DNA of 61,310 nucleotides, counting the filler, from Sluysia triapertura (taxonomy: Eukaryota): NCBI GenBank assembly GCA_046118255.1. It is 4 parts of 4 records of this genome, joined end to end, with 100 filler letters (N's around TTAATTAATTAA, not from the genome) between each part and the next. Parts side by side here need not be neighbours in the genome. Positions count along the whole stretch, not along the records: positions 1 to 13,151 come from JBJNIA010056216.1; 3 more parts are not named here. One strand, given 5' to 3'. Position 1 is the first letter of the stretch; every line of letters starts with the position of its first letter. Positions 3 to 42,300 of this stretch are shown here, in pieces. The notes beneath the pieces were generated by a model, which was not told where the DNA came from, searched no databases, and was given only the letters and a program-made list of their open reading frames with translations. Both the position numbers and the translations under genes were made by a program.

Positions 3-1780
3 ATGCTCACTAAAAAGAATGTAACATTTAAATGGACTGAAGAACAAACTAAAGCATTCAAACAATTAAAAGAAAAATTAACAACACCTCCAATTTTAAT
101 GTTTCAAGATATGAACAAACCATTTACATTAAGAATTGGTGCTAGTAATTTTGCTGGAGGAGCAATACTATGGCAGAAAAATAAAGATAACTTAGAAGGA
201 GTAATATTATATGCAAGTAGAAGATTAAATAAAGCGGAAATGAATTCTACAATAGAGAATGTCTAGCTGTAGTATATGCTTGCAAATTATTCAAACATTA
301 TTTATTAGGTCAAAAAGTATATTTGTATACCGATCATAAACCATTAACTTACTTGTATAACCATAAAGATGAGGTTTACAAAATTGGCAGAATTTGATTT
401 ACAAAAAGTATATAAACCTGGTTCATTAAATAATGGTGCAGATTGCATGTCTCGTCTAACTAATACAGATGAACAAGGAAATGTAAAACAAATTAAACTT
501 TATTGAAATAATGGCTATATCTGGTAAAATTGAAGAATCAAAAGAAATCATTAAACATCAAAGAAAAGATGAAGAAATGATGCATGTATTTGAAGCAATA
601 GCTAAAGGTCTATTAAGCGAAGAACAAGCTAAGAAATTAGCAATAACTGATGGTATATTGCGTTTCAAAGATCCTAAGGATGAATGGAAAACGATAATAC
701 CTAAATCATTAATAAGTCCTCTATTAATTCAATTTCACGATGGCCATGTTAGGTGGACATTTGTCCACAAGGAAAACATTATCAAGTATTAAGAATAAAT
801 ATTATTGGGATAATATGGATGAAGATATAAAACATTGGTGTAAGAACTGTGCAGTTTGTTGTAGAAGAAAGAATACTGGAACGAAAACTAAAGTACCATT
901 AAACTAATGCCGATACCACTTTCACCGATGGAATTTACTGCAATGGATATAATGGGCCCATTACCCGAAACAATTATTGGAAATAAATAAATAATAGATT
1001 ATTTAACAAAATGGCCCGAATCATATTCACTATCCAATCAAAAAGTTGAAACAATCGCTCACATACTGGTAGAAAAAATAATATATCGGTATGGCACATC
1101 TAGAAAGTTATTAACAGATCAAGGAACTAATTTCACTAGTGATGTAATAAAATCAGTCGCTAAAATGTTTAATTTTTGAAAAAATATACTTCGCCATACC
1201 ACCCACAAACAGATGGAATGGTAGAAAAATTTAATAGAACTTTAATAAACATGCTTCAATCATATGTAAATGAAAGACAAAAAGACTGGGATCTTTATAT
1301 AGCTCCATGTTTATTCGCATATAGAAATTCAGTTCATCCAGCGACAAATTTGACACCATTGAATTTAATGTATGGAAGACACGCGAATATGCCTGTTGAT
1401 TTAGAATGGGTACCACTATCATCTCAATATTTAGAAACTCCGGAATACATAACAATAATGAGAGCAAATTTACAATATGCTTGGAAACGCGAAGGTTTAC
1501 AAATACGACATACTCAAGAAACGTATAAAGATAATTATGATACAAAAGCAAAAGCACATAATTTTGAAATTGGAGATAAAGTATTACTGGATTATTCAAT
1601 AGCGAAACCAGGATACTCTTCAAAATTACATAAACCATTTAATGGACCATATGAAGTGATGAAAACAACGTCTACTAATATATATATTAAAAAACCAAAT
1701 GATATAAATGCAGACTTTTGTAGCACATGTAAATCAGTGTAAATTAGCACCAAAAGAAGAATATAACTTAAGAAACACAA
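3..1780 (+). pseudogene. pol: Gypsy pol: RT connection/RNase H and integrase (zinc finger, DDE core, GPY/F)
   Basis: FKWTEEQTKAF..LTTPPIL; YASRRL; LAVVYACKLFKHYLLGQKVYLYTDHKPL; YYWDNMDEDIKHWCKNCAVC; MDIMGPLP; LLTDQGTNF; YHPQTDGMVEKFNRTL; KLHKPFNGPYEV; split by frameshifts and stops. Confidence 0.95.
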
Positions 1781-1889
1781 AAGTTACAAAAAGTATTTTG
1801 AAGGTTAAACCAAGAACCATAGATAGAGATAAACCACCTTCACCAACAAAGAAATCTTCCGAAAGTGAAATAAAAATGATAACTTCTTC

Positions 1890-2215
1890 ATTCAACTCTC
1901 AAAGTCATTTAATACTAAGTATAAAATTTAATCAAAGATAGATGAGAGCACTTATAGATACCGGATCTAATAATACAGCAATAAATTACTATATGTTACA
2001 GCCTTCAGAAATAGTGACGATACAAGATGTAGGATTAAGATTATTTACAGTAGATGGATCAATTATAAAATTTAATGGAATGTTACAATGTCAATTGATT
2101 ATTTTAGATATAAATAGGTGCACCAATAGTAGTTTGGAATTTTTGTCCTTATGAAATATTAATAGGTATGGATGTTATAAGTAAATTAGATAATATTGTC
2201 ATTCATGGTAGACTA
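1890..2215 (+). pseudogene. Retropepsin-like aspartic protease domain downstream of integrase
   Basis: RALIDTGSNNTAI (catalytic D-T-G), flap-like LFTVDGSII, and after a frameshift CPYEILIGMDVI (ILG-x-D motif); same frame as the integrase tail QTFVAHVNQCK, one TAG at 1939-1941. Confidence 0.8.
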
Positions 2216-2379
2216 TGATTTCTAAAGATGTCAGTAAATGCATAAATATCTTTACCACAAATCGTATTAGATAATTCGCCAAGACCATCTATAACTACAC
2301 TAAATTGGAATAACTTAGATTGGTGGGATAGAGATACTACAGTGACATCAATATCTGGATTAGAGTTGAATCATTAAAT

Positions 2380-4480
2380 ATATCAAGAATAGAAAATAAC
2401 AATGGTAATGATGAATATAATAACAGTAATACTAAAAGTAGTATAATGCTAATAAAGGGGATACAGAATAATAATAAATCTCTTTATATTATTACTTTAA
2501 TACTATTATTTATACAAGTAATAACCATGGTAATTTCGAATCCATCAAAATTGATATCGTACACTAATACTACACAAGGATTCTCTGTAGAAAATACTTT
2601 TAATCGGTATTGGTCAATAGAAATAGACATAAAAAATGAAATTCCAAAATATTATTTAGATATGTATTGAATCTATACTAATCCATTCTTAATGAAACCA
2701 CCTTCATAAATAAACAATAGCTATTACTGTGAACATTCAATTTATTAAATTACCATTTTAATAATTTCATTACTTAATAATAAATCCCAAATAGAACAGT
2801 TTAAAGATATGTTTAAAAAAAGTAATAATATAACTATTGAAGATTGTAATCAACCACTAATAAATGAACCATTGATGATCCAAACAAGGAATAATACTAT
2901 TAATACAAATAAAACTACATCAATTAAACAAAAAGGGGATAATAACTATATTTTTATAATAATTCTTGCGATATTTACTTTGCTTTATTTAATGTCTTCA
3001 ATTTATTACAAAGTTGTTTGTAAAAAGAGTTTATAGATCCAAATATTTTGATTTTTACGATTACGACACAAAGATACAAGTTAAAATATTTGATAACAGT
3101 ATCTAAGCACAATGTATCTGTATAAACCCCGCAAGATTTAATTTCAGTATATGGAAAGTTTACAAACAAAGAATACATAAAAATGTATATCCCCAACAAT
3201 TTGCAGTGGTTTTATGGCAACGGATGATAGACACTTAGTTATGTTTGTAAAAAGTCATGCTAAAGCTATTCAACAATTACACTATTCAATAAAAGGTAAA
3301 CGGGAAAAAACAATTATTATAAAGAAGTTGCATAAGGATCCATCAATAACAATTTTATTAATTGCAGGTACTTTATTTATAATAGCAATAATAAGGGCAT
3401 TATTAATGATTGGTATATTTATTACTACTAAATGCAAAAACACGCATTTGTCAAACAATGATGATAACAATAATCACTATTCAATTCCACGAAATCATTC
3501 ATTCTTTGCTCCTCTAGGACCACCAATGATACCACCACCAATTTATGATTATAATAGTAAAACAAGAATTCCTACACATTATAGTGGAATACAGGTGTCT
3601 TCTGTTTTACTTTGTATTTGCTTAACTTGTATTTCTGATACTTATATATCAAAAATCACGAAAAATAGTATAAGTAGAAGAATTCTTTATTAAAATAATA
3701 TGCAACTGTCAATTCAATCAAAACAGATGAGATAATAGCTGTTATTAAAATAATAGAAAAGAAACTGATATATTTATCAATACGATGTTGCCTGGAAAAT
3801 GGTGTATTACATCAACCAATCCGTATAAAACTACTAAGTACTGGATAATTAATTGTGAAGAATTATTGGAATTTCAATTTCATAAAGTTACTATAACTAT
3901 TGAATTAATAGATAGGACAATATATACACAAAATCATTGGATTCAAACCAACCCGTATATATACTTTGATAAAATAGCGATAAAATTCTCAATATTAGCA
4001 AAAGGGATGGTCATAATTTAGTTAAGATAACAAATCCATTAGAAAACAACTCAGATATTATATAAATATAGTATATACTTATGGATTGATAGTACAAAAA
4101 CAAACAGTCAAACGAAACTATTAAGCTGATTCGTTATTATCAATAATACACGTATGGATACTTTAAACTAATGAAACATTAAAATTCTATGTATTTTGGC
4201 CGTTTAAGACACCTTTCAATCTAGTAATACATATTTCAAACATAACAATAAAAAGGTACGTAAGTACTACAAGAAGAAGACATTAAAATCCTAGTAACTA
4301 AAGATAATACTAAAATAACTAATCTACAGAACTGTAATAATTAACATCAATTAACATTCAACAAAATGATATTAAAATTAATGTATATTTCTACATCTTA
4401 ATAAGTATGCTTTATTCTAAACTTATGGTTAATATCATCATAGAAACTATCATAAAATTTGCACTAAACAAAAATAACCT
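2380..4480 (+). pseudogene. Env-position membrane polyprotein (serial signal peptides/TM anchors, N-glycosylation sequons, PPxY)
   Basis: ORFs at 2446, 2809 and 3214 share one frame; hydrophobic stretches YIITLILLFIQVITMVIS, YIFIIILAIFTLLYLMSSI, ITILLIAGTLFIIAIIRALLMIGIFIT, SSVLLCICLTCIS; sequons NTT/NIT/NNT/NKT; PPPIY at 3532-3546. Confidence 0.6.
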
Positions 4481-4791
4481 AAAATACAAAAATAATTATT
4501 TAAAGACCATTAAAGTGTAGGGCATAATGACGTGTGAAAAATGGGCAGTAATCAGTTGGATTTTCTTCTGTCTAACAGGCTGCCCAATTCTAATACTGTC
4601 ATTTAAATTGTAAATATTAGCTGTTAGGATTTTTGCATATATAACATAATTTTTAAGTTTTAACATATATACAGTACAATTTTTAAGTTTTTTAATAAAG
4701 AGTTTAATAATGATTTATTATTTACTTTAATATTATTATTATATTTCGTTTTATTTCATTTTCTTTTACTTCTTTTATTACATTTTAGAAA

Positions 4792-5200
4792 ATGGTTTAC
4801 AAACGTTGCCCCATATACCAGAAATGTATACACAAAAAATACATAAAAATGACTCCATGACACATAGGGCCCACTTTGAGTGTATGATAGGCCTTTTCAA
4901 ACATTTCGTAGAAGAAACAGTAAATTGTCCTCTTTGTAGGATTCAACTTATAAGTATGAATGTATTCCGTAAGGGAACTTTTCTTTACGAATACATCTTT
5001 GAAAGAATTCTACCACATATATTGAAAAGAGGAATAAAGGTACAGGAAGTGGAAATAATACAACCAGAGGAACTCAATAGAAATACTTCAAACACTTTAG
5101 TTGTTCCTCCAACAAATTTCCCTCCTGAGTTGAAGAAATCTCAAAAGCATAGCTGCCGACATAGGGAAGTGTGAAAATTCTACAAGCTGGCAGGACTATA
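4792..5200 (+). pseudogene. RING-H2 zinc finger (E3 ubiquitin ligase-like) accessory gene of the retroelement
   Basis: From ATG 4792: MVYKRCPI(Y)QKCIHKKYIKMTP, a 1-nt deletion at a Cys codon (~4858), then THRAHFECMIGLFKHFVEETVNCPLCR; C3H2C3 spacing once two lesions are repaired. Confidence 0.75.
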
Positions 5201-5397
5201 AAAAAATATCAAAGATTAAGAAAAAATAAATCTTTAAAGAAAAACAATCAATAATTTAATTTCCTTCAATTCTTTTCTTTACTTTATTTTCCTAAAATAC
5301 ATAAAGATAAAATTACCAATTATGAACTAACGATTATTTTTTCATTGTTAACAATTTTTATATATTTTATGTATTATTCTTAGATTTATAAATATCT

Positions 5398-6600
5398 ATG
5401 TCGGATTATCAACATGCACATATAATAAACAATATTAATTCCTTCTATAATGGAATAAACAGATTTTGCGGTAACAGTGATACTCCATTTGTATTCTTAG
5501 ATTCCAAAGCAACTCCAAATTTTCTGAAAAATGAAATGGATATACATTTTATTACTTACCTCTATGGAGTAAAAGCTTTACAAGCACCTTTGAATATTCA
5601 AACATTAGAAGGCTTTCCAGTAGGAAAAGGTATGATTTTAATAGCATCAGCTAGAGGAGCATTGAAAGTAACTTTATTTATTAATAATCTTCCTCTATAC
5701 TCTCGTATACAGGGATTATTAAAAATATAAAGGAAAGTAGAAGCGGAAGAACTACCAATAACATTTGCTGTTCTTCTCGAATCTGATGTTGATAACATAA
5801 ATGTTTGGCAACAAGGTTTAACTTTCACACATTTACCCTACGAAGATATAGCTAATAAGGATTATTTAATATTTGTAGCAATTAATTTGGCTTTGGATTT
5901 TCATGATACACATCAAATTATTCGAGCTGGTTTTACGCCATATCACAAACAATATCATTCTGAAGAATGAGAATTAAGAACTTTCTCAAAGTAGAACATG
6001 GATTAAAGGAAATTGATTTAAAAGATGCGAGAGATATTGCAGAAATATCATATACATGTAGCTTGCTTACCGGAATTTATTATTAGGACATTTCAAATAC
6101 CTTTTGGATGGTTACGTGGCATTATCAATTTAACTTCTACAAATTTCATCCGTCAAATCGCGCTAGGAAAGTATTAAAACTTTTGTGTCCATTTCCGCCG
6201 AGAGATACTTGCACGAAATTAGCACAAGATTATATATCACTTTTTGAATTGATTAAGCAGAGAAATGCATCATTTTTGCCGCAAATAATTGATCAACATT
6301 TGAATAATCAAATTTCATCTACTTCTGCAGCTTCTTTTCTATTACATAATAAAAATTCTGCACAAAATCTTCCACATAAAGGCAAGAAACATTAAGACAT
6401 AACACTCTCCTTGTTAAATGATATGGTCGACGAAACCGCATTGAAGAGACGGAAAATCGAGAATTCGGCAGATAACTAAGTGGAAAAAGGAAATAAGCAG
6501 CAAGTTGATAGTTTTGAAAATTTCGGTACCATTGATTTAAACCTGGATGGTGACGATTTCTTTGATTATGACGACTTTATTTATATGACAAATATTTAAT
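5398..6600 (+). pseudogene. Unknown ~350-400 aa accessory ORF of the retroelement, with an acidic C-terminus
   Basis: Frame 5398-5730 continues past TAA (RKVEAEELPITFAVLLESDVDNINVWQQGL...); further pieces at 6108-6395 and an acidic tail DLNLDGDDFFDYDDF; coding-like composition. Confidence 0.55.
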
Positions 6601-7071: not shown

Positions 7072-7339
7072 TTTAAAGATTGATTTTGTCACAACAGAAT
7101 TTGGGAAATTATATTTTCGAAGAAAATTAAAAGATTATATTATCCACAAAAGAAATTATATTAATACGAATTTTTTGAAATTGAAAAATCATTAAGTATT
7201 TCTTTTAAGATAAATCAAAATTATATATAAAATATACGTAAACTTACTAACAAATTAAGTAAAATTTTGTACGATATAAAATAATTTATAAAATCTGTAA
7301 ACTATTAAATATTAATTAATAAATTAATATTTAAAATAT

Positions 7340-7780
7340 TTTATTATATTATACTAAAGGCTCTCAAATGCTTATCGATATTTCAAGAATACTTAAATGT
7401 TACTAAAGTCTTCATTGTTCTAAAGTTCAAAAGTACCTTAATGCTTCTAAAAGTTCTTCGAGTCCATCTCAAGCTTCCATGAGGTCTCAAACCTTTACAT
7501 AGGTCTTTGGAACTCCAAGGTATTCTTTGACTCTTAACATTATTATGGATGTTTTTTCCTTTCATGATTCTTATACAAACGATGATTACAATGTTCAATC
7601 CATCATTTTGTATCAGTTTTTCTTTCATCTAATAATTCTACATGTTTCTCATTCATCTTCTGATCTACAGTTGGGCAATCCCAACACTTACACGTACATA
7701 TTCACACATAAACTCAAATTCACCTTATTACACGAACACGAAATCATTACAATTAAAACTGAAATTCATAGGTTATGAGA
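7340..7780 (+). repeat. Dispersed repeat family A, copy 1
   Basis: Shares ttcaagaatacttaaa with 12070; catctcaagcttcca..aggtctcaa..cct matches the reverse complement of 26790-26845. Confidence 0.7.
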
Positions 7781-25600: not shown

Positions 25601-25852
25601 TTATTTAACAAATTAGAAAACATTTTATCTAATATTATAATGTCACTAGAATTGAAACAATGTTTTGTTAGCTTCATTAAGTAGCTTATACATATCCTGG
25701 TAACAATTATTTAATTCTTTGTAGTTAACATGTGGCGTATTGTATGAATCTTTAGCATCATTCATTAAATGTTTTATACCATTCTTAAAGTCTTCTTTAT
25801 TTATTTCCTCATTATTGTTTAATAATTTACGAATATATCTTTTTGAAGTCAT
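22603..25852 (-). CDS. THADA: THADA/Trm732 (tRNA Nm32 methyltransferase regulator, DUF2428), 5' part; exons 25852-25692, 25645-24240, 23618-22603 (861 codons, open)
   Basis: SNAPEGY, LLVCCWRSCKEISILFG, THKGAFE, TRRSAGLP; GT-AG introns of 46 and 621 nt restore one frame; donor gtaagt at 22602; no downstream exon found. Confidence 0.88.
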
Positions 25853-29188: not shown

Positions 29189-29299
29189 AATCTTGTTATT
29201 TTAAACAAAAATAAAAATAATAAAAGTAAAAATAGTAATAACGGTAATAATAATAAAATTTAAAACAGTAAACATATAATAATAATAATAAATTATAAC

Positions 29300-31166
29300 A
29301 AAACAATTTTAATTCCGTCTTTTGAATTGACTGATTAATCGTATGATGTGGTCTAGCTTGTTTACCACGAGGTTGAAATTTAATAGCACTTATGTGATCC
29401 ACTAAATTATCAATGAAATTATAACAAACTTTCTCAGGCGTGTAGATTAAAAAGTGAATCGCTAAAGTTACGGTTAATTCATTACTTTGATTCATTTTAA
29501 TAAGACAAAAATAATTCGTATTGTTACTTAGATCTAATTTATCCGATTCTGGATGTGATCCAAAGAATCGAACATAAATACTGTTTTCTTTTATAACAAA
29601 TGAACAAATAGTATTTTTCAGCAATACATCTAATTGGACTAAGCTCTTCCGACATTGTATCGAATCAAACTTTTTTGTTATTTGGTTAGGAAAGCATAAA
29701 TTGTCAGGTGACAGGTGATCATGTTCCATTAATACAGTAATAGCAACCTTGTGCATACAATACACATGTTCAAAATAAATCATATTGTGCCAATAATTAT
29801 AAAATTGTTGTTCCAAATGATCACATGGTTGATCTGTTTGAGAAATCGTGGGCTTTAAGCCATTACACAATGAAGATGGAATATTACAATATAGACTTTG
29901 ATTATATTGGCAAAAGAAATCTGTGTAATACAACATATCGTCGATTAGTTTCGAATGAATTAATATACTTTGATCAGTACAACGAACTAAATTTGATCTA
30001 ACCAACTTACTGTTGTAGTAAAATGCTGTTAAGGAAGAAGTTAATTTCCTTTGTTGCTCCAATGGCAATTTTGTACTTATAGAAACTTTCATTGAAGTAT
30101 CAGAATAAAGCATTAAAATCATTTCTATATCCAATTTTTGATTATTTATGCTTAAATTAGATAATATGTAGCCCATGTTGAAAAGAGATAAAATTAATGT
30201 TAATGGAGGGATATTGAAATTCTTTTCATGCAAACATTTAATTTGAACTGTGTCTGAAGAATTGCGAAAATCTACTAAATCAAAACATTCTTGGCCAATA
30301 ATATTTAAAGATTCAGTTAACGATTCATTTGAAAATATATATTTACCACCAGTAGCTCTACAAAGTAACTTCAATATATTGTTTTCAGCATGACTTTCAA
30401 TGTCACCAAATTCTTCATAAATATTATCACAGCATACATTTATCACGTTCAAATTAATACTTAAAAACCGCATCAAGCTTAATATGTTTTCGTATTTTTG
30501 CCCCCTTGGAATTTTCATGTTAGCATCAGATATAATAAATGCACTTTTAAAATCAAAATTTTTGTAACAGTCAAAAATTTTCATTGAAACTATTGCATTA
30601 TCAATTATATTATATAAAACATTCTTGGAGCTACCTGTATAATTAGTTTTATAAACAAATGTTTTATCAAAAATTCCTTCAAAATAAGATGACAAATTAG
30701 ATTCAGTAATTAATGATCCACGATCAACTATGACAGTTTGAGTGTTATCAAATAATATACAAGACAGTAATAAATTTTGATTTAAATTTTTAGAATGACT
30801 CGAAATTTTCTGTAAAGTGTTACGTAATAAAGATTCAACTATTAACAAACCAGTTAAAATTTTATTTCTACCAAAACTGGATATATTAAACATAGACTGA
30901 CGAATATCAATTAAAATAGTAATATGACATTGTTCGCTTAAAAAAACAAATTTAGGTTTTACTGAAGAGAATGTATTCGTATCACAGGTTTCAATATTAT
31001 AATCCAACAACTTATAAGAATTTGATTCATTTAAGCCGCGCCTGATGTCATCTGAATCATCCATAAAATTATCAAATTTCTCTAAGAAATGTCTTATAAA
31101 TTCATCTTTTGCAAATAAACACATTCTTTTAAGATAAATAATGAACTCTTGAACACATTCACTCAT
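29300..31166 (-). CDS. SZT2: SZT2 (KICSTOR scaffold) N-terminal ~620 aa; first exon or truncated copy
   Basis: FVFLSEQCHITILIDIRQS, SAFIISDA, LKLLCRATGGKY, LMEHDH..FDSIQCRKSL..SFVIKENSIYVRF match the SZT2 N-terminus; the ORF tail to 29196 is Tyr/Phe low complexity. Confidence 0.85.
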
Positions 31167-32132
31167 TTTTGGTTATGTAAAAAATGTAACAAATATCATA
31201 CTAAAAAAAACTATTCTGCAGCTAATAATAAGCAAAATAAATTGTATAATTTATTAAACTTAATTAAAATATAAGAATAGTATTTCATTAAAGAAAATAT
31301 AAATAAAATGAAAATCTATATTGCTCAAATATTAGTACTTATTGCATTTATTTAAAGAAATTAAATTAATAGCAGAAATAAATTAGTTTAAAAAAATTGA
31401 AAAAAGAATTAATGTAGTCTTTATCTGCCTAAATAAAACTTATTTATTTCAAAGTTTCAGCAACTTGTTTAAAATATAGAGATCATGAAAAATAATTTGT
31501 TTTTATTATGTATGTATTGCTTACCACGTAATTCAACTACAAATTTTTAAAAAATTTCACTTTTAAAATCATAAAGTGCATGGATAATTAAATTTATAAA
31601 ATTTGTTTAAAGTAGATACATAGTGGTGTTATAGCAACATTTAAAATTCACTATTTTAATAATATTCACTAAGAATAAAATAATATAATATTAAAATTAC
31701 AATGAACTTTAATTGATTTTGAAAATGATTTTAACGATTAATTTAAAGTGATCAGAGAAATATTTAATAAATTTGACTTCATTTGATGTATCGTTTCAGG
31801 ATTCCAAACTTGTAAATATAATGGGTTTGTGAAAAACAACTTAAAGATTCATTGATGGATGATTTGATGAAAGGCTTATTCTTAATATTCTTAATTAGAA
31901 ATATTGAGTTCACCTACGATCCTAGTTTTACTGACTTAAGGGCTAGTCCGTGGTGCTGGTATTTTATGAATTACCTGAGGGATCGGTCCACCTAATATAT
32001 ACGCTTTATACCAATTCTGGAGACGTATTATTAGGGTTTTATGCTCAAAAATTTATATTAGATAACTTACTGACTGATACAACTAAATAAGATTAAGTTA
32101 CAACTTTTCAGTTTAAGATTTTATCAAATTTG

Positions 32133-39344: not shown

Positions 39345-42300
39345 ATGGGTAAAACATCAAAAGATAAGCGCGATATATATTATCGTTTAGCAAAAGAAGA
39401 AGGTTGGCGTGCTAGAAGCGCATATAAATTATTACAAATTAACGAAGAATTTAATATTTTTGAAAGTTTATTTTTATTTAAATTGTTTGAACTAGAAATT
39501 AGAAAATAACGAATTAGTAAAACGTGTTGTTGATCTTTGTGCCGCACCTGGAAGTTGGTCTCAAGTTTTATCAAAAAAACTGTGGCAAAGTAAATCTGAA
39601 GAAGCCAGAGATGAAGTCAAAATAGTAGCTATTGATTTGCAGGAAATGTCACCTATTGAGGGAGTATTTCAGGTTTTGTAAATAAACAATATTTTAATCA
39701 GATTTGTAGTTACAAGGAGATATAACGAATGAAGAAACAGCAGAACAAGTTATTTCACATTTTCATGGTCAAAAGGCCGAATTAGTTGTATGTGATGGTG
39801 CACCTGATGTTACAGGTTTACATGATATTGATGAATTTATCCAACATCAGTTGGTTCTTGCTGCTCTTAATATAGTAACTCATGTATTAGAATTGGGAGG
39901 AACATTTGTAGCTAAGGTATTTCGTGGACCTGAATCACGACTTCTCTTTCGTCAACTTTGTTTATTTTTTAAAAGTGAAGTTATTTGTGCCAAACCGAAA
40001 AGCAGTCGTAATTCCAGTTCAGAATGTTTTGCTGTATGTCGCGGATACCAACCACCTAATGGTTATGTTCCAAATATGTCTAACCCGTTACTATTAGGAG
40101 ATTATAAAGAAAGTAAGCAGATTTTATTTAATAATTTATTTACAATAATTTAAAGGAACTAATTTTTATAGTTTAAGAACATTTTATATATGAATTACTC
40201 GAGATATTAGTAATAAATTTCTGTGATTAAAATAATCGAAATTATTGTAAAGGTCAAATTATTTTCAAAGGACGTCTAAACAAATTTCAGATTTTATCTT
40301 CAAACAATTATTTGCCTGAATTTTTCTGATCTGCTTACTTGTCAAGCTTAGTAGTTTTTTCTTTCATCATATATTTGTCTTGTGCTCTGTCGCCATAGTT
40401 TACCATAAGTGTATTTCGAATTTAATTTAAGTATTTCTTCATCCTTCGAAGATAGGCTATCTGCTTACATAATTTTGGTGTATCAGATTCATAAAATTGT
40501 CGAATGCAATTTTATCGGAATAAAGTGAAACTAATATAAGACCATTCAATTTATTAAGTTATACTATTTATCGTCAAATACTCTGTTTACTACCAGTATT
40601 TCTAATCGGGGCAGCTGCATTCATACTATGGCGTATATGTTAGTGGGTAGGTTTCACATTTGCCTTTCTTTACCACTGCATAATCATTATGAAGCAAATA
40701 GATAAGTATGATTGCAAATATTTTCTTTAATTTAGCTTTTCACAATTATTTTCTCAACAAAATTTAGTTGAAAATCATTAAGAAATGCATAAGAGAATTT
40801 GAGGAATTTAAAATCATCATGGAAATCGATTGTTTTGATTTGTTTATTAATCGATTTTTTACTAGACAACTTTTCTATTCGGGAATATCTGATTTTCACA
40901 TTACTGAGTTAAGGTAATGCGTCATAGTTAACTTCTAATCCATACCCACTAATTTCCTAATAACGTGGTTAATTCGAAGTCAATTTTTAATTTCATTTGA
41001 ATTCATAAATTTTCATTATCTGTCTTTATAATTTTGCATAAACAGCGCATAGAACCCTTTTTACTTATTATTCTATCCAAATACTAAAATAAAGCCCTAA
41101 AACACTATCGATAACATTCTTGAAACACTTTCAATTGCTCTGATTATTGTATTAATATCGTAAATTTAAGGGTTCTCAGTAAAACTACATAGGTTTTACG
41201 ATTCATGTAAAAGTTTGAATGCATCCAAAATGTCTAAGTTTGTCAAATTTATGATAAAACATCGATTTAGTTTCCTGTTATAAATCATTGCAAACACTAC
41301 GTTCTTAGAACTTTTAAGATTGTTGAAATAATGCTTAAAATTTCAATTATCAGTTGTTTATTCAAAAATTTCTATTGTCATCTACCAATAAGTATGTATG
41401 AATTGCATATCATGCGCGTCTATCAGAACCTACAATAAATAAACGAATTTGGTCTACTATATAAAGAGTCGTGAAGTCAAAACGATTTTCATGAAACGTA
41501 TTGCGATAAAAACTTGTGAAATATAAATTAATTGGTAGGCGGAGCATTAAAAATGCAAATATTAATTTATCAACAAACTAATTCGACCCTTTTTAATTTT
41601 ATACAAAGGGTTGACCCAACCAGGAAACATTATATACAATTTAAAAGATAAAATTATTTAAATCTATAACTATAAATTACTAAGTCAATTACCATCGAAT
41701 TTATAACAAAAGAAACAAAAATTGGTTTATCAAAAAGTCTAAAAAATACCTCACTTCGAACTAATTCCTTTTCTTTCGTTGGTAGAATAAATTGATCGTT
41801 TGATAGTTCACCATCCATAAACATAATGAAATGAGGGATAATATGATATTCTCAATAATCTGACAACCCAACCGTTACCGCATGATGGATAATTACCAGA
41901 ATTTTTTTAATATAATGCTAACATTGGTGTAGGGTATTTTAAGAAGCTCACATTTAGAATCATTTCATGATACATCTTTGTCAATTTATTACCACACGGT
42001 GATATCGTACAAAAGTGATGAATATGACATGTACGAGTAAAACCGTCAAAACAGACCAAGTAAGTATCACAATAATAAATCTCGGCGAAAAGTTCCTAAT
42101 CACTGTTCTGATGTAGCATTTAAATACCATTTTCTTTTTTATCGTCCACAAACAAGCATATATTACTCTTCATCAAACAGACATCTTTATTCATAAAATA
42201 ATGGATCAATAGATTAACACACACGCCCTCTAATTCCACACATCTTACTATTTCCCTATTTGTTTGAAGTATCTTATTTGATATATCACCGTCATACCTC

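Follow-up and report, generated by a model that had tools for sequence, protein, structure and literature searches.

The closest described counterparts of the locus analysed here are the planarian Burro/GYPSM1 elements, giant gypsy-like LTR elements of 25-30 kb from dugesiid hosts in which, in the part of the published description drawn on here, a BCL2-like domain, an in-frame env of the mononegavirus type and the PR-RT-RH-IN block are encoded in one polyprotein; of the ~4,900 aa of the Burro chain, roughly half is accounted for by domains with a name (PMC6431247). The bdelloid rotifer elements TelKA, Vesta and Juno carry separate ORF3s of 210-600 aa behind pol, and the passages of that report used here warn that transmembrane (TM) domains and sequons alone do not define an env (PMC5408684). 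In Drosophila, env-less elements of the MDG1 group encode sORF2, one protein of 63-107 aa with a ~30-aa myristoylated ectodomain; the FAST/sORF2 criteria given in the sections consulted are a single TM, an ectodomain of 10-50 aa and an N-myristoylation motif (bioRxiv 10.1101/2025.03.14.642691).

The window, that is, the whole stretch of 61,310 nucleotides of Sluysia triapertura (GCA_046118255.1) that was analysed, starts inside an element of a related kind. Judged from their sequence, positions 1 to ~7350 represent a degraded copy of a Ty3/gypsy element that is present in high copy number and has a Burro-like layout; all of its features described below lie on the + strand. RNase H is found at 33-430 (Pfam RT_RNaseH_2, E 1.7e-22), the RT and all upstream parts falling beyond the window start, and a broken integrase, comprising the core and the C-terminal SH3-like part, occupies 776-1740 (Pfam rve, E 6e-6; SH3_Tf2-1, E 0.015). 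The stretch behind the integrase is multi-copy, with at least 68 DNA matches (40 of 522 candidates scored) and at least 128-151 protein-level matches per search of the genome's contigs. The copies sort into the lineages S1 (to which the window copy belongs), S2/S3, S4 and S5, between which the domains are 26-61% identical. No LTR ends were delimited, the element homology stopping at ~7350, where it meets an unrelated repeat; this separate ~360-bp repeat (7326-7690) is itself high-copy, with ~85% identity to many contigs.

Contig maps (L079, L133, L134, L137; several internally deleted) give the gene order as BCL2-like, env, PR1, RT, RH, IN, a second protease PR2, three membrane units A, B and C, the stop, a RING ORF and an orphan ORF. 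The order is a composite, as no single copy runs from Gag to the stop, and the longest runs on one contig are BCL2-env-PR1-RT-RH...PR2-A-B-C without IN (L133), BCL2-env-PR1-RT-RH-IN-PR2-A-B (L134) and env-PR1-RT-RH-IN-PR2-A-B-C (L079). The PR-RT-RNase H-IN order of Ty3/gypsy (Metaviridae-type) elements is seen both in these maps and, by Pfam, in the frames of L025 and L150. The upstream env matches PF24664, a mononegavirus-type fusion glycoprotein, with E down to 3e-51, and shares an open frame with the BCL2-like motif (L113, L150) and with PR1 (L150). The BCL2-like motif preceding it is weak, with Pfam Bcl-2 E values of 0.011-0.074 in five ORFs, all below the curated cut-off, and constant in position. 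Gag-, Ubi/SUMO- and dUTPase-like ORFs are plausible by eye at the expected places, with neither a Pfam match nor an exact CCHC motif. We call the element Burro-like on the placement of its env, a comparison made with the published description of Burro.

Behind the polyprotein stop, a separate RING-finger ORF of the same element maps to 4821-5198 (Pfam zf-RING_2, E 3e-7 in relatives), followed at 5392-6395 by an orphan ORF that is conserved at ~310 aa among the copies, is broken in the window and has no Pfam match. The RING-finger protein, with its basic C-terminus, and the orphan take this place in lineages S1-S3 (also L067:891-1826 (-) and L078:2214-2681 (-)). In many copies a large internal deletion has brought env into direct contact with later parts (L020, L027, L132, L133, L137, L138), and one copy carries, directly before the integrase C-terminus, a 459-aa stop-free ORF with no Pfam match (L026:1182-2558 (+)), which may be either captured cargo or an unrelated neighbour.

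As to the host, among the COX1 contigs of the assembly (L196-L198, L199-L200) a COX1 of 27% GC has AAA at conserved Asn sites, the usage of the flatworm/echinoderm mitochondrial code, and the host is therefore likely a flatworm. Three different COX1 genes of 46-47% GC have AAA at Lys sites; they look vertebrate, of a fish-like type, and are taken as co-assembled foreign DNA. Elsewhere the window holds exons of the host genes ST7 (15026-15364), THADA/TRM732 (DUF2428; 22579-23625 (-)) and an FtsJ-like methyltransferase (39710-40150), together with long frames at 16728-17759, 24223-25710 (-) and 29199-31172 (-) that gave no good Pfam match.

The initial annotation had read positions 2380-4480 as a polyprotein in the Env position, a set of small membrane proteins cut from a Pol-fused precursor with serial signal peptides and anchors, lying mostly in the frame of a protease and bearing a PPxY motif. 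Its count of at least four hydrophobic segments holds: three-frame translation gives five (2479-2538, 2947-3009, 3340-3423, 3595-3642 and 4377-4442), of which the first four share their frame with the DTG motif of the protease (1957) and the fifth lies in another frame. The post-TM tail LGPPMIPPPIYDY is likewise present, with PPIY at 3535-3546. A sixth segment occurs in relatives and is gone from the window copy at ~3024-3046, where most relatives have ~60 more bases. The protease is indeed in frame, but it is a second one, behind the integrase, and the coding unit begins earlier than had been annotated, with this protease at ~1879, its last codon being the stop at 4518-4520. A role as the Env of the element is not supported: a separate PF24664 fusion protein precedes protease-RT on the contigs concerned. 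The window copy itself, of 24-27% GC, contains about eight frame changes and many stops across 1711-4547 and is a pseudogene.

The organization is read from relatives, in which a stop-free frame behind the integrase runs from PR2 to the stop by way of A, B and C, three units predicted to be type I membrane proteins, each led by a signal peptide. Such frames join the integrase to PR2 (L080), extend over 789 aa in L160, where the frame opens in the integrase C-terminus and continues slightly beyond signal peptide 3, for 940 aa as a natural frame from PR2 to the stop (L155), and for 983 aa in L167 (3-2951, +). Together with the conservation described below, they support the annotated precursor, which is fused to Pol, has predicted signal peptides and anchors in series and would be the source of several membrane proteins. 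PR2, broken in the window (1879-2227, DTG at 1957-1965), was identified through Pfam gag-asp_proteas in stop-free relatives, with E values of 1e-7 to 5e-6, above the Pfam cut-offs; in a motif scan, DTG was kept in 23 of 33 PR2 copies and absent from the other 10. PR2 is 30% identical to PR1, and this pairwise identity suggests that it may have originated by duplication; the tree of PR1 and PR2 included only three PR1 rows, had no outgroup and carried a long-branch warning.

Behind PR2, a Pro-rich and then Ser/Asn-rich linker (2228-2478), predicted to be cytosolic, leads to a series of hydrophobic runs, in which each of A, B and C is preceded by a short run and followed by a long one; a short linker separates the long run of A from the short run of B, and a polar loop the long run of B from the short run of C. 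We read this pattern as three predicted signal peptides and three predicted anchors; by eye, small residues occupy the likely -3/-1 positions after the short runs. Predicted internal signal peptide 1 (2479-2538) is supported by hydropathy and by the conserved domain that follows, its cleavage being assumed. The ectodomain of unit A (2539-2946, with in-frame stops in the window) comprises a ~95-aa domain with two invariant Cys, delimited by alignment, and a Thr/Asn/Lys-rich stalk, and ends at predicted TM1 (2947-3009), after which the short linker and signal peptide 2 of relatives are missing from the window copy. Unit B has an ectodomain of ~105 aa (3023-3339, frameshifted in the window), predicted to be mostly beta (model pLDDT ~60-79) and carrying two conserved Cys and one conserved sequon, followed by predicted TM2 (3340-3423), which has 28 aa, is unusually conserved in sequence and precedes a basic-Cys-basic motif. 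A predicted cytosolic loop (3424-3594) with a Y-x-x-P motif (HYSIP, 3475-3489), a Pro-rich run and the PPxY (PPIY, 3535-3546) then leads to predicted internal signal peptide 3 (3595-3642), whose hydropathy is 2.7 in L062 and below the 2.3 threshold in L155. Unit C (3643-4376, heavily broken in the window) would consist of a stalk and two domains that are predicted to be beta-sandwiches of an FnIII/Ig-like kind, and ends with predicted TM3 (4377-4442), a short basic tail, a C-terminal IKV and the stop TAG (4377-4520 in all). The ectodomains behind the predicted internal signal peptides thus measure ~140 aa in A, ~105 aa in B and ~270 aa in C.

In S1-S3, the C-terminus of unit C is IKV-stop in 18 of 28 copies, and in three more the frame continues past IKV; four S4 frames have xFI-stop instead. 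A hydrophobic C-terminus of this sort is compatible with a PDZ ligand of class II or with a signal for ER export. The stalks vary freely among copies, and the S4 copy L167 has a ~100-aa Gln/Lys-rich, coiled-coil-like insertion in the stalk of unit A. Two other readings of the ectodomains were tried and rejected, namely that a single repeated domain makes up A, B and both halves of C (hhalign probability at most 2.2%) and that unit B is CUB-like, which had been proposed by eye and found no support.

Units A, B and C are coding and kept by purifying selection. Pairwise dN/dS is mostly 0.02-0.3 across lineages (two pairs were saturated), with 0.02-0.28 for unit A, 0.03-0.26 for unit B, 0.15-0.24 for unit C and 0.05-0.29 for the B loop, against comparison values of 0.14-0.19 for the integrase region and 0.02 for one RT pair, and the low values are accompanied by third-position bias. 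PR2 gives 0.07-0.09 within S4 and 0.44 between S2 and S4, signal peptide 1 gives 0.51-0.53, and TM2 within S4 is 90% identical with a dN/dS of 0.05. The remark in the initial annotation that Cys is scarce is true, yet the few Cys are nearly invariant: the pair of unit A is present in 20/20 and 19/20 alignment rows, that of unit B in 30/32, and the four of unit C in 17-19 of 19. The sequons it had noted are also there, but only some are kept between lineages, one in unit B in 29 of 32 rows and none in unit A in more than 7 of 20. The invariant Cys pairs and the kept sequon fall in predicted lumenal parts.

The B loop was surveyed twice for PPxY, both scans missing copies with damaged anchors. 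Among 110 loci the motif was found in 9/13 S1 and 0/21 S2/S3 tails, and among 195 loci, after manual re-labelling of five rows, in 8/11 S1, 0/21 S2/S3 and 13/20 S4/S5 tails, while three S4 copies have P-T-P-x-Y. PPxY is thus conserved in part of the copies and not kept in all lineages, contrary to a strict late-domain criterion, and the late-domain reading of the motif is weakened. In the S2/S3 tails the loop is still under purifying selection in spite of the missing PPxY (dN/dS 0.18-0.29) and the Tyr-acidic motif is kept. Two features are better kept than PPxY: an acidic/Asn-rich Y-x-x-P motif (48 of 52 tails) and a Pro-rich run that terminates in a hydrophobic-Tyr-acidic motif. This context resembles tyrosine-kinase and SH2/SH3 docking sites, and its better conservation speaks more for a candidate loop on which host adaptors dock than for a strict late domain. 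In the midpoint-rooted domain-B tree, S1 is sister to S2/S3, so that a loss of PPxY in S2/S3 is the simpler reading, and since the motif occurs on both sides of the deepest split of that tree, it is probably old.

Searches for homologues came back empty. The word-index search of public proteins gave no match for a 305-aa S1 frame, nor, against longer proteins, for a 516-aa S2 frame; the BCL2/env region had no match in the same collection either, which indicates that the collection lacks such elements, and these blanks therefore say little about novelty. An HMM of 17 S1-S3 frames found 0 matches at E<=0.001 among 1.84 billion representatives, profile searches of PDB sequences with A, B and C yielded nothing under E 0.07, and the ESM atlas gave no usable match for unit B. 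Structure models were of low confidence, with a mean pLDDT of 46 for A-B and 43 for C. The A-B model had no hit at E<=1e-3 in the Foldseek PDB or viral search, and its VIA listing was filled by TM helices. For the model of unit C at pLDDT 43, Foldseek returned mostly tandem FnIII receptor ectodomains (best E 6.3e-3, CD148 FnIII 1-2), VIA returned Ig-like sandwiches (best Z 6.3, rmsd 2.4, 63 aligned; within the common range), and the ESM atlas returned FnIII/Ig clusters at 0.77-0.81. Unit C may thus weakly resemble tandem FnIII/Ig domains, and because no fold match reached E 1e-3 or Z 8, the FnIII label is only a lead.

Based on these findings, we propose, as a rather probable interpretation, that the polyprotein of a Burro-like gypsy element ends, behind the integrase, with this stretch, which encodes PR2 and three predicted type I proteins that would serve as accessory, receptor-like host modulators beside the upstream fusion protein. 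The ER translocon would thread the single chain in and out of the membrane and signal peptidase would release A, B and C, an arrangement that would leave the PR-RT-RH-IN block tethered to the membrane at both ends, and PR2 could help to free the integrase from this second, C-terminal tether. By analogy with motifs of other systems, the ~57-aa cytosolic loop of B may dock host adaptors through phospho-Tyr motifs, with a WW-binding PPxY that overlaps the last Tyr of the loop in three lineages (S1, S4, S5), and this docking would govern how the unit signals or is sorted. On the same kind of analogy, C may carry a PDZ-type or ER-export signal in its hydrophobic C-terminus (IKV or xFI).

Several other explanations have to be weighed against this one. 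The loop of B might be a true late domain: its PPxY would bring in a NEDD4-type ligase and ESCRT for the budding of particles that bear env, and the motif would sit on a membrane protein and not on Gag. An element with an env needs a budding route, and the probably old motif is found in S1 (8/11) and S4/S5 (13/20), across the deepest domain-B split; however, its absence from all 21 S2/S3 tails, although these remain under selection with their Tyr-acidic motif kept, and the P-T-P-x-Y of the three S4 copies make this reading unlikely. We find it less likely still that the three units act on the virion as attachment or helper glycoproteins in concert with the upstream fusion protein, as the separate attachment proteins of mononegaviruses do. 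Such a role would suit their production in a fixed ratio with env from one frame, the glycosylatable stalks of A and C, the Ig/FnIII-like character predicted for C and the unusual conservation of TM2, whereas the single viral fold search, made with the A-B model, showed no likeness to viral structures, and a signalling-type tail on B would be superfluous for attachment.

That the cassette is itself the fusogen, either a novel Env or FAST-like proteins, appears very improbable. It does occupy the classical env position behind the integrase and encodes several small membrane proteins, but a full PF24664 fusion protein already lies upstream, none of the members scanned has a Pfam fusogen match in A-B-C, and ectodomains of ~105-270 aa with predicted signal peptides lack the hallmarks of FAST/sORF2 proteins (10-50 aa, myristoylation motif), contrary to the FAST-like possibility raised in the initial annotation. 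Its further statement that the stretch is unlike a baculovirus-F-type Env agrees with Pfam, which detected no baculovirus-F homology behind pol in 59 domain rows and two long frames, and with the division of the stretch into three short ectodomains. Finally, almost no credence is left for chance hydrophobic runs in AT-rich non-coding DNA, the artefact against which conservation of frame and codons across copies had been named as the check. The window copy, at its low GC and full of stops, could by itself suggest such an origin; against 300 first-order Markov sequences, it has 4 runs of 15 aa at hydropathy >=2.2 where the controls average 0.8 and reach 4 in 2/300, and a lone PPxY arose in 14/300. 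Yet frame and codon conservation across copies is strong: the frames are stop-free over 789-983 aa, and dN/dS is low, with third-position bias, across lineages that conserve the proteins at 26-61% identity; therefore, the objection fails.

The end of a Burro-related polyprotein is now annotated, as a cassette that is real, selected and apparently unannotated on a known kind of element. An apparently duplicated protease and three selected membrane proteins, some of them constrained like the integrase, argue for a membrane-bound or extracellular stage and an engagement of host signalling, as in complex viruses. A broader picture, which we offer tentatively and hold more doubtful than the interpretation proposed above, is that flatworm Burro-like elements are enveloped viruses carrying an accessory surface apparatus within one ~4,000-residue polyprotein, in which two proteases (possibly pairing within one chain) would flank the replication enzymes, the fusion protein would lie mid-chain, and three receptor mimics released by signal peptidase would stand at the end, one of them with a phospho-Tyr and PPxY module coupling host signalling to particle release. 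Within the literature searched, a layout with two proteases and terminal receptor mimics was found described for no retroelement, and no post-integrase protease or serial membrane cassette was found for flatworm elements, where the original Burro description may hold a prior annotation. The lineages with and without PPxY form a natural contrast that makes the late-domain question testable without sequence changes. For annotation, the case warns that a TM-rich ORF behind the integrase is not necessarily an env.

The precursors of flaviviruses/hepaciviruses and bunyaviruses are processed by signal peptidase, with an anchor preceding an internal signal peptide, and EBV LMP2A and orbivirus NS3, as PY-plus-Tyr modulators, are membrane proteins in which PPxY adjoins Tyr motifs. 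To these systems the cassette is linked by analogy only, no sequence or structure similarity having been detected. With sORF2 it shares the encoding of small accessory membrane proteins behind pol, although its units are larger, predicted to be signal-peptide-led and present alongside an env (compared with the sections consulted of bioRxiv 10.1101/2025.03.14.642691). With the bdelloid ORF3s it shares extra membrane or enzyme cargo behind pol, but it is in frame with the integrase, has its own protease and comprises three serial units (compared with the passages used of PMC5408684). From Burro/GYPSM1, compared by description only, the element differs in the second protease and membrane units behind the integrase, which are not named in the part of PMC6431247 drawn on here, and in a distance from the gag-like ORF to BCL2 of only ~3 kb; in the upstream ORFs scanned (part of a fragmented set), none of the BIR, ankyrin, MATH and AIR1/Smc domains of Burro was found. 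It resembles them in the series BCL2-like, env and PR-RT-RH-IN, in its accessory ORFs and high copy number, and in occurring in an assembly that contains a flatworm-code mitochondrial genome.
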